DNA from: a virus
Lineage: Duplodnaviria; Caudoviricetes
Reading direction: 5' to 3' (one strand)
Length of the DNA: 64,000 bases
Virus record (IMG/VR): IMGVR_UViG_3300033066_001295
Location: 143,817 to 207,816 of that record
Part shown: in pieces, positions 13,963 to 28,542 of the stretch
Layout: the number at the start of each line of letters is the position of its first letter
How positions within the stretch are numbered: the stretch's first letter is position 1
The notes under the pieces: model-generated
Database searches by the model: none
The model's input: only the letters and a program-made list of their open reading frames with translations
What the model was told of the DNA's origin: nothing
Translations under genes and position numbers: made by a program

Positions 13963-14010
13963 ATAAAGTACCCGTTCTGGTGCGCTTCTTTGAGAGGCGT
14001 AACGGGTTTT

Positions 14011-16626: not shown

Positions 16627-16693
16627 TGGTACGGGAAGTGTGAGTTTCACACACTCCTCCACCGCAAGGTGGCGTTCGTCTAAACTATCCCGC
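16627..16693 (-). ncRNA. compact tRNA-like RNA with 4-nt anticodon loop
   Basis: GCGGGA/TCCCGT-A-CCA, CCACC-TTGC-GGTGG, GTGTG-TGAAACT-CACAC. Confidence 0.55.
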
Positions 16694-20565: not shown

Positions 20566-21081
20566 ATGACTAAAAAATGTTGTAGGTGTAAGATTGAGAA
20601 ATCAGTTACTGATTTTGGCAAAATGTCTTCTGCCAAAGATGGTCTTCAAAGTAGGTGTAAGCCTTGTAATAGGGCTGTTGCTCTGGACTACTCAAGAAAA
20701 TTCAAGGAGCGGAGCTACACTAACACAAAAGAACGGAAGAAGCGGATTACCACAGCTATATCAGAGGTGAAGCGACGTGCTGGATGTGCTCTATGCACAG
20801 AAAGTGACCCTGTATGCTTGGTATTCCACCACCTTGACCCAACTCAAAAGGAGCTTCAGGTAAATGGTGCAACAAACCCATCTGTCCAAAGAATAACCCT
20901 AGAGGCAGTCAAATGTGAGGTAGTTTGCTGCAATTGTCACCGCAAGGTCCACTTTGGGAACATGGTCATAGACTCAAGGCGTGATATAGACTTGTCCCCT
21001 ATAGAGATGTTAGTGCCTAGAAAGGGACGAACAAAAAGGATGGTCCCTCCTGACGGTAACGCTCCGTCTTCTGCGAGTTAA
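20566..21081 (+). CDS. HNH endonuclease with N-terminal Zn finger
   Basis: KKCCRCKIEK..DGLQSRCKPC; CALC..LVFHHLDP..KCEVVCCNCHRKVH. Confidence 0.85.
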   Translation: MTKKCCRCKIEKSVTDFGKMSSAKDGLQSRCKPCNRAVALDYSRKFKERSYTNTKERKKRITTAISEVKRRAGCALCTESDPVCLVFHHLDPTQKELQVNGATNPSVQRITLEAVKCEVVCCNCHRKVHFGNMVIDSRRDIDLSPIEMLVPRKGRTKRMVPPDGNAPSSAS

Positions 21082-22832: not shown

Positions 22833-22905
22833 TGGTAGCAGGACGTGGAGTCTCACCACGATGAACAAGCTTATGAGGCTCGTTGGGTTAATCAACCTTC
22901 CTGCC
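22833..22905 (-). tRNA. tRNA-Met(CAT), atypical (7-bp anticodon stem, small D loop)
   Basis: GGCAGGA/TCCTGCT-A-CCA, loop CT-CAT-AA. Confidence 0.75.
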
Positions 22906-22906
22906 G

Positions 22907-22968
22907 TGGTGGAGGTGACAACAACACTAAAAGGACTCTCACCTTTCAGTTATCACGTTGCCACCCCC
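22907..22968 (-). ncRNA. Ala-acceptor hairpin RNA
   Basis: GGGGGTGGCAAC/GTTGTCACCTCC-A-CCA (G3:U70, A73) capped by AAAGG-TGAGAGT-CCTTT. Confidence 0.6.
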
Positions 22969-23021
22969 ATAAAATGCCTAGCCGCCTGTAAAGGCAACAG
23001 CCCGGTAAAGGGTTTTCGGCT

Positions 23022-23098
23022 TGGTGCTCACAGAGGGAGTTGCACCCTCACTGCCATGGTCCTTAGCCATGTGCCTCCTGCTGTTGGGCTATGTGAGC
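23022..23098 (-). tRNA. tRNA-Leu(AAG), short variable arm
   Basis: GCTCACA/TGTGAGC-A-CCA, loop CT-AAG-GA. Confidence 0.85.
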
Positions 23099-23175
23099 AA
23101 TTGAAAGCAGAGCGGCAACCAGAAGCTCCTGTTTACACATGAGCTAGTTTAGCGTTTAGGTTGCTGCCCTGCAAA

Positions 23176-23251
23176 TGGAGCCTCGCTGAGGACTTGCACC
23201 CCACGTATCCTGCTTACAAAACAGGTGCATCGCTGTCTATGCTTCCGAGGC
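23176..23251 (-). tRNA. tRNA-Thr(TGT)
   Basis: GCCTCG/CGAGGC-T-CCA, loop TT-TGT-AA. Confidence 0.85.
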
Positions 23252-23257
23252 AAAAAT

Positions 23258-23342
23258 TGGTCGGCTTGGAGGGACTTGCACCCTCAAGAACTGATGATTT
23301 TGAGTCAACCGCTTCTGCTATTTCGCTTTCGTTCACAAGCCG
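23258..23342 (-). tRNA. tRNA-Leu(CAA), atypical D arm
   Basis: CGGCTTG/CAAGCCG-A-CCA, loop CT-CAA-AA. Confidence 0.8.
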
Positions 23343-23406
23343 TAAAAGCTCCGGGTCACCAGTTAATTCTGATCACTATGCATCGCGCGTTTTACCGCGA
23401 CCCGAT

Positions 23407-27985: not shown

Positions 27986-28542
27986 ACAAATCTATGTTTC
28001 ACCCAGTTTGAATTTTCCTTTGAAGGTGACGAGTGCTGGCGGATGTACCCAGCACTAAGTCTCTTTGACACAAGACCCTCAACAAGCTTGTTACCGGGCA
28101 CATCCCATTCAGCCCAGAACCTCCTAGCCTCATCTTCAGTCATGCACTGGAGGCGATACACTCCGCGTGGAATGCTTCCAACAAGTGGCAGGTAGGGAAG
28201 GTCATTGAATGCCTCACGACGTTCCAGATAAACTCCTTTGACTGTTGGCACATCAAGCACTATGAGGATGCCCTTGCCTGTGCCACGACGTTCAAGAAAC
28301 TCACAGTCGATCCATTCAAAATCTGGCAGACTATTGATCAACGGGAGCATTTCATTTTCGATTGAAAGTCTTCCCCCATGCCTGTTCCAGCAAGTCCTAT
28401 GGTGAGGTGACACAAGTGCCCTCCAGCCATTGATCTTAACCTCATTAGTCCAGCCGTCACCTTTCGGGTCAGACAGTTCAAACCTACCGCCGTTAATGGG
28501 GCGCATAGGGTAGAAGGAAGGTTCTGAAGGGGCTAGGACCAT
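27982..28542 (-). CDS. minimal ATP-dependent ligase-family nucleotidyltransferase
   Basis: Motif I EVKINGWRA, III WIDCEF, IIIa LIVLDV, IV VEGLVSKR, V WVKHR; no OB domain. Confidence 0.75.
   Translation of the reverse strand: MVLAPSEPSFYPMRPINGGRFELSDPKGDGWTNEVKINGWRALVSPHHRTCWNRHGGRLSIENEMLPLINSLPDFEWIDCEFLERRGTGKGILIVLDVPTVKGVYLERREAFNDLPYLPLVGSIPRGVYRLQCMTEDEARRFWAEWDVPGNKLVEGLVSKRLSAGYIRQHSSPSKENSNWVKHRFV

Follow-up and report, generated by a model that had tools for sequence, protein, structure and literature searches.

Can a phage carry, as a gene of its own, the bare acceptor arm of an alanine tRNA? This question is raised by a 62-nt hairpin, here called HP62, that sits in the tRNA array of an uncultured phage and has neither a D arm nor an anticodon arm. 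The window, by which we mean the whole 64,000-nt stretch of DNA that was analyzed, comprises bases 143,817 to 207,816 of a 207.8-kb IMG/VR phage record that is 94% complete by CheckV and has a G+C content of 47.5%. Approximately 45 tRNA genes, every one with an encoded CCA, lie on the minus strand of the window between ~4.6 and 26.5 kb; a 140-amino-acid open reading frame inside this array yielded no homologues when searched.

HP62 lies within the array and on its strand at positions 22907 to 22968, where a sequence-only reading had first placed it, with the 5' end of the RNA at 22968 and the 3' end at 22907. The predicted mature RNA runs from G1 to the CCA, and the unit is delimited by its fold, by a covariance model (R1, 97.4 bits), and by copies in two other contigs (L122:416-477 and L244:24318-24379). 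In the direction of the array, tRNA-Leu(AAG) (23022 to 23098, minus strand, within a 271-nt block common to the window and strain L244) is followed by a 53-nt spacer without significant structure (22969 to 23021, minus strand; z = −0.69), HP62, a single C (position 22906) between its CCA and G1 of the next tRNA, and tRNA-Met(CAU) (22833 to 22905, minus strand). The spacer ends in UUUAU (22969 to 22973, minus strand), which is the commonest tRNA leader of the array and would set an RNase P site at U-1/G+1; TTTAT directly precedes 7 of the 45 tRNAs, and AT occupies positions −2/−1 before 21 of them against a background of 5.7%. An RNase P cut at the 5' end of tRNA-Met would place the 3' end of HP62 one nucleotide beyond the CCA. 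Across the array as a whole (window 4600-26600, minus strand), tRNA leaders end in TTTAT, TTAAT, or TCAAT right before +1. A G follows 20 of the 27 TTTAT sites in this interval, and 10 of the 27 precede tRNAs or the mini elements HP62 and mini46, a 46-nt minihelix that we describe below.

The predicted fold is a single rod with no D or anticodon arm, as had been noted. Its basal stem comprises 13 bp (G1-C58 to G13.U46); the original count was 12. The 5' arm of this stem, GGGGGUGGCAACG (22956 to 22968, minus strand), begins with the 7 nt of an acceptor-stem 5' strand, and the 3' arm, UGUUGUCACCUCC (22911 to 22923, minus strand), holds U70. An internal loop of UGAUA (22951 to 22955, minus strand) against GU (22924 to 22925, minus strand) separates the basal stem from a 9-bp apical stem with the 7-nt loop UGAGAGU (22926 to 22950, minus strand), of which the top 5 bp and the loop form a T-arm-like module according to the fold and a table of T loops. 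The discriminator A73 and the encoded CCA form a single-stranded ACCA (22907 to 22910, minus strand). The internal loop was considered as a K-turn and rejected, having no tandem G.A pairs, and the 7-nt loop was rejected as an anticodon loop, having G rather than U at position 33.

The minimum free energy of HP62 is −32.5 kcal/mol, compared with a mean of −15.5 ± 2.9 for shuffled sequences (z = −5.9), and none of 200 shuffles was as stable. Its 22 pairs include no mismatch and four G.U pairs, three in the basal stem (G3.U70, G8.U, and G13.U) and one in the apical stem. In the plus-strand sequence the four G.U pairs turn into A.C mismatches, and its folding is consequently poor, not exceeding chance (z = −1.3). 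That all of the non-Watson-Crick pairs are G.U in the minus-strand RNA points to a structure at the level of RNA on the transcribed strand, not to a palindrome in the DNA. The two helices continue for 6 and 4 bp past the acceptor and T modules, where the D and anticodon arms are absent, and the T-like loop consequently lies 22 bp from the 3' end instead of 12, which makes recognition by enzymes that gauge this distance uncertain.

The first four pairs of HP62 are, in tRNA numbering, G1-C72, G2-C71, G3.U70, and G4-C69, followed by A73 and CCA. The acceptor determinants of alanine in bacteria are A73, G2-C71, G3.U70, and G4-C69 (PMC9976931), and the claim that HP62 carries a complete alanine acceptor identity without a D or anticodon arm is thus borne out. 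Among the 45 tRNAs of the array, G3.U70 is restricted to tRNA-Ala(GGC) and tRNA-Ala(UGC). The 7-bp acceptor stem and ACCA of HP62 recur identically in a tRNA-Ala of an unrelated phage (L083). Since HP62 has every acceptor determinant used by bacterial alanyl-tRNA synthetase (AlaRS), it should be charged with alanine, and it is plausible that HP62 is a natural alanine minihelix.

The apical GG-UGAGAGU-CC resembles the T arms of the phage's own tRNAs, which upholds the description of the cap as T-loop-like. T loops in this phage are typically UGCRAGU; HP62 keeps U54 and A58, along with the phage's unusual G55, and its A56 is common only to itself and the neighboring tRNA-Met, C56 being present in 41 of the 45 tRNAs. 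The cap is closest to that of tRNA-Met (UGAGACU), and the GGUGAGA-U-CC common to both suggests local copying between them. This tRNA-Met (window 22833-22905, minus strand) has a G1.U72 first pair and the sole A56 T loop among the 45 tRNAs. Neither ARAGORN nor Rfam (RF00005 cloverleaf) detected a tRNA at 22907-22968, not even with the cutoff relaxed to E ≤ 10. The tRNA-type features found in HP62 are a 7-bp acceptor stem, a discriminator, CCA, a tRNA-gene context, and the array leader. Judged by its sequence features, HP62 is a gene-like unit derived from a tRNA gene and without an anticodon, and not a chance hairpin.

These data are best explained by a scenario in which HP62 would be cotranscribed with the minus-strand tRNA array, cut by host RNase P at U-1/G+1 and again at the abutting tRNA-Met, and trimmed by one nucleotide at the 3' end to yield a stable 62-nt RNA ending in ACCA. 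In this RNA the D and anticodon arms would have been replaced by extra helix, giving a rod of 13 + 9 bp. AlaRS would charge it with alanine, and EF-Tu would probably bind it, but it could not decode. Minihelices are in vitro substrates of AlaRS, EF-Tu, and bacterial RNase P (PMC11221534), and from this established enzymology we infer both the cleavage and the charging of HP62; AlaRS and the CCA-adding enzyme were looked for in the phage genome and not found. HP62 would then be a non-decoding mimic of the tRNA acceptor end that competes for factors acting on tRNA 3' ends or for factors of the alanine system. A decoy role of this kind is possible; during infection HP62 might, for example, sequester host defense enzymes whose modifying or cleaving activity is directed at tRNA 3' ends, or it might tune the alanine and tmRNA systems. 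We assign a probability of roughly 40% to the reading that HP62, which has the structure, context, and identity elements of a tRNA-derived unit, would be processed to a chargeable, non-decoding RNA, whose most likely role, in our view, would be that of an acceptor-end mimic or decoy. The more exacting proposition that host AlaRS charges it, EF-Tu carries it, and the phage uses this natural alanyl-minihelix as an acceptor-end decoy is doubtful. Of the alanyl-minihelix initially proposed, the alanine identity at the sequence level and the gene-like, tRNA-derived unit stand; of the roles that we take up below, ribosome rescue is disfavored and aminoacyl donation finds no support.

Three assemblies from different samples, all of one phage lineage, contain HP62; the phage itself occurs in SRR32380195 and JGI 3300033121. 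An identical copy occurs in a Logan contig from another sample (L122), and a third sample provides strain L244, a JGI contig that is 86 to 99% identical to the window in blocks. HP62 of L244 bears a single change, C68 to U, which converts G5-C68 to G5.U68, is the sole difference in the 271-nt block, and fits the structure predicted for HP62. This sole differing homologue retains G3.U70. Because the strain copies are 99.6 to 100% identical in the block, the retention of HP62 says nothing about selection. No compensatory base changes were found among the copies, which are only near-identical strain copies with one G-C to G.U change. Between two 99% identical blocks, the L244 stretch that corresponds to window 23103-23405 (L244:23533-24183) differs, is longer by ~480 bases, and packs tRNA-Leu(CAA) and tRNA-Thr differently, a comparison that shows recombination inside the array.

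More distant relatives were identified through the terminase and a large structural protein; P0002-P0005 have terminases 76 to 97% identical to that of the phage. For the closest nonstrain relative (terminase 76% identical), the contig stops short of the array. In a relative at the family level, represented by a 216-kb JGI contig (terminase 51% identical, large structural protein ~55% identical in its N-terminal part), the array has the same rewired T loops, encoded CCA, and a tmRNA. Read end to end, this array contains no HP62 homologue and no CCA-ended element with G3.U70 apart from tRNA-Ala. Approximately 119 phage loci, of which many contain large tRNA arrays, matched the phage-type T arm (GGAGCGTTACC); blastn revealed no close relative among them, and the first 99 gave no HP62 homologue with model R1. 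Metagenome scans gave no match when anchored on the neighboring tRNA-Met and five arrays, none with HP62, when anchored on tRNA-Leu. An exact-pattern scan of viral contigs for the hairpin gave no match, blastn against cultured phages matched tRNA-Leu only, and neither the neighboring 301-amino-acid protein nor the DnaB-like helicase, used as queries against viral contigs, retrieved close relatives. Rod-like matches to GGGGGUG...CACCUCCACCA (L215, L137, L174, L227, and L222) fall within open reading frames and not near tRNAs, and they were rejected as chance. Within the arrays searched, HP62 is thus, as far as sequence comparison reaches, confined to the close strains of this phage.

Such a narrow distribution would agree with HP62 being a neutral remnant of a tRNA-Ala gene left by internal deletion or recombination, perhaps transcribed and processed and without a selected function. 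We consider this somewhat unlikely, yet a strong rival. The array is a mosaic between strains in which elements are gained and lost, and the acceptor stem of HP62 is that of another phage's tRNA-Ala. In the four-codon boxes of the phage's tRNA set, moreover, the only missing isoacceptors are Ala-CGC and Gly-CCC, which would fit a converted or decayed tRNA-Ala(CGC).

Two other CCA-ended minihelices of the array bear on this alternative. A 49-nt minihelix (window 23858 to 23810, minus strand) has G3.U70; its counterpart in L244 (L244:23079-23127) has A3-U70 and an acceptor stem identical to that of tRNA-Ser(GCU) nearby, so that it looks like a truncated derivative of tRNA-Ser, not an alanine element. 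The 46-nt mini46 (window 14056 to 14011, minus strand), with G3.U70 and a TTTAT leader, precedes a 48-nt abiF-like RNA and then tRNA-Ala(GGC). Strain L257 lacks all three and has one different tRNA-Ala(GGC) instead (L257:6025-6103), and the trio is thus a strain-specific cassette, possibly with a small RNA released by tRNA-type processing. The match to the abiF RNA motif (window 13970-14006, minus strand) scores 37.9 bits against a threshold of 37. We therefore rejected the argument that selection is evidenced by three minihelices sharing G3.U70. The siblings vary between strains, which means that G3.U70 is not conserved in the class and that the class turns over fast. Such fast turnover makes it likelier that elements of this kind arise as by-products when the array is rearranged, and the variation between strains weakens the case for a selected alanine identity.

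Several features of HP62 nonetheless run counter to a neutral remnant. Its 22 pairs are free of mismatches, every non-Watson-Crick pair is G.U on the transcribed strand, and helices 6 and 4 bp longer than the tRNA modules would not be expected, on the predicted fold, of a simple deletion remnant. HP62 also has its leader, discriminator, CCA, and junction intact, and the sole polymorphism (G5.U68 in L244) still pairs.

Further tRNA-like elements occur in the window and elsewhere. Two more CCA-ended elements without G3.U70 lie at window 16627-16693 and 20865-20931 (minus strand); both are 67 nt long, one being tRNA-like with a 4-nt loop at the end of its anticodon arm and the other a rod that has a 10-bp stem and is 99% conserved in L257 and L258. 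In other phages (L032:522-604, L047:5356-5435, and L068:8614-8699), RNAs of 80 to 86 nt combine a G3.U70/ACCA acceptor stem and a T arm and have no normal anticodon arm. Those of L047 and L068 are inside tRNA arrays, and that of L032 falls below the Rfam tmRNA threshold.

The HP62 leader and CCA fit recognition by RNase P, and HP62 might accordingly be thought a processing or punctuation element, a "dummy tRNA" that provides RNase P and 3'-end sites or an exonuclease block for its neighbors and whose alanine identity is incidental. The other minihelices come immediately before non-tRNA RNAs, mini46 before the 48-nt abiF-like RNA and then tRNA-Ala, which lends this idea some weight, and a processing role is plausible for mini46, which flanks a small RNA. 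For HP62 it is improbable: the downstream tRNA-Met brings its own RNase P site, the unstructured 53-nt upstream spacer offers nothing obvious to release, and a 22-bp rod with a T-like cap exceeds what a processing site needs.

HP62 had also been compared with tmRNA, and the similarity of ends is real: the phage's tmRNA ends in GGGGACG/CGUCUCC-ACCA, and HP62 likewise has G3.U70 and ACCA. This full tmRNA (G000:C1:138065-138486, minus strand; 97.8 bits), which ARAGORN missed, lies 5.3 kb before the window. Its T loop is the canonical GGUUCAACUCC, unlike those of the phage's tRNAs; the tmRNA of the 216-kb relative is at L248:4607-4991. On the strength of these ends, HP62 could be proposed as a tmRNA-like or puromycin-like acceptor for ribosome rescue, or as an inhibitor of trans-translation of the kind suggested for tmRNAs reduced to the tRNA-like domain (TLD-only), one of which is known in phage DS6A (PMC4131195, PMC11915505) and which are common in viral contigs. 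We judge this highly improbable. HP62 has no T arm beside the 3' acceptor strand: the UGUUGU that lies 5' of CACCUCC pairs with GCAACG. It also has no UUCGAC-type analogue of the D loop, and it matches no Rfam tmRNA at E ≤ 10, whereas 67-nt TLD-only RNAs score 56 bits. The phage, moreover, has its own full tmRNA, and SmpB was looked for in its genome and not found. HP62 is not a TLD-only tmRNA. We observed TLD-only tmRNAs of 66 to 72 nt in IMG/VR viral contigs at L126:7487-7553, L141:3162-3228, and L131:157-224, with ~60 more among L125-L241. They comprise an acceptor stem, a UUCGAC-type D-loop analogue, a short hairpin, a T arm, and ACCA, and at 56 bits they exceed the Rfam tmRNA threshold; the type known from DS6A appears to be far more widespread.

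Some Ala-tRNA-dependent transferases accept acceptor-arm helices, and HP62 might by extension be an alanyl donor for nonribosomal transfer (cell wall cross-bridges, aminoacyl-lipids, or N-terminal addition). All that speaks for such a role is the alanine identity itself (PMC9976931). The phage genome has no homologue of FemAB (PF02388) or of the MprF C-terminal domain (PF09924), and no neighboring gene points to such a transferase. The donor role once suggested finds no support here, and we give it hardly any credence.

That HP62 might be a chance hairpin, a DNA-level palindrome, or a transcription terminator or attenuator was weighed against a shuffled-genome control. Stems of at least 12 bp ending at NCCA number ~1.25 per shuffled genome compared with 5 observed, and at this rate stability alone is weak evidence. 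A 69-nt CCA-ended rod at window 28037-28105 (minus strand), with a 14-bp stem, a GCCA end, and a z-score of −5.5, equals HP62 in stability. It lies inside a protein-coding gene (substitutions by codon position, 14/10/56) and is destroyed in strain L244; being coding and unconserved, it demonstrates that a strong z-score by itself can mislead and serves as a negative control for such hairpins. The apical stem and the GUUGUUGU that follows it were flagged as terminator-like, but the stem has 3 GC pairs, the tail (GUUGUUGUCA) contains no real U tract, and a tRNA gene that must be transcribed follows 1 nt later in the same helix context, so that HP62 is not an intrinsic terminator. Array position, strand, tRNA leader, 1-nt junction, and full alanine identity are jointly too specific for chance, which these sequence features together make very unlikely, and the poor folding of the plus strand tells against a palindrome.

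The reading of HP62 as a tRNA-derived, putatively chargeable mimic of the acceptor end would have consequences beyond this phage. For 35 years, recognition of the acceptor stem by synthetases has been studied with alanine minihelices as artificial models. Were HP62 charged by host AlaRS, carried by EF-Tu, and used as a decoy, it would represent the first gene found in nature for the RNA whose study defined the "second genetic code." It would show that bare acceptor arms serve phages as working molecules, here alongside the rewired tRNAs, the tmRNA, and the further tRNA-like RNAs of this phage, and it would provide a case of tRNA mimicry in phage-host conflict that is simple and open to testing. 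Should HP62 be no more than a remnant, it would show how fast tRNA-derived pieces are made and discarded in phage tRNA arrays and would counsel caution in interpreting similar "mini-tRNAs" elsewhere. HP62 is interesting mainly if its expression and charging are demonstrated.

A literature search for minihelices or tRNA-like genes without an anticodon that occur naturally in the tRNA clusters of phages yielded only synthetic minihelices, TLD-only tmRNA, and the uncharacterized RNAC and RNAD of T4. One likeness is to the synthetic tRNA-Ala minihelices and microhelices (Francklyn and Schimmel 1989, as cited in PMC9976931 and PMC11221534), which share with HP62 an acceptor helix with G3.U70, G2-C71, and G4-C69, A73, CCA, a T-type loop as cap, and the lack of an anticodon. 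Those are laboratory constructs of 12 bp (7 + 5), whereas HP62 is a natural gene-like unit of 13 + 9 bp with an internal loop, its T-like loop lies ~10 bp further from the 3' end, and its charging is a prediction. The TLD-only or CDS-less tmRNAs of the DS6A type, for which a decoy or inhibitor role has been proposed (PMC4131195, PMC11915505), are like HP62 phage encoded, ~65 to 70 nt long, and anticodon-less, with an alanine-type acceptor stem and CCA. They differ in having a T arm that adjoins the acceptor strand, a SmpB-binding D-loop analogue, and a match to RF00023, none of which HP62 has.

T4 RNAC and RNAD measure ~120 to 140 nt, and we know of no alanine identity described for them. As non-tRNA small stable RNAs within a phage tRNA cluster (PMC3014915), they resemble HP62 in setting. 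The precursor of 4.5S RNA (PMC5499578), like the proposed precursor of HP62, is a rod-like hairpin that has no complete tRNA body and is cleaved by RNase P at the base of its long helix. Unlike HP62, 4.5S RNA is the RNA of the signal recognition particle, with neither an aminoacylation identity nor a T-like cap. The armless mitochondrial tRNAs of nematodes are hairpin-like and lack D and T arms, and they have a normal anticodon loop and decode. HP62 differs from them in its UGAGAGU loop, which has no U33, and in its much longer helices. HP62 can best be placed among the tRNA-derived small RNAs of phage tRNA clusters, as a new variety.
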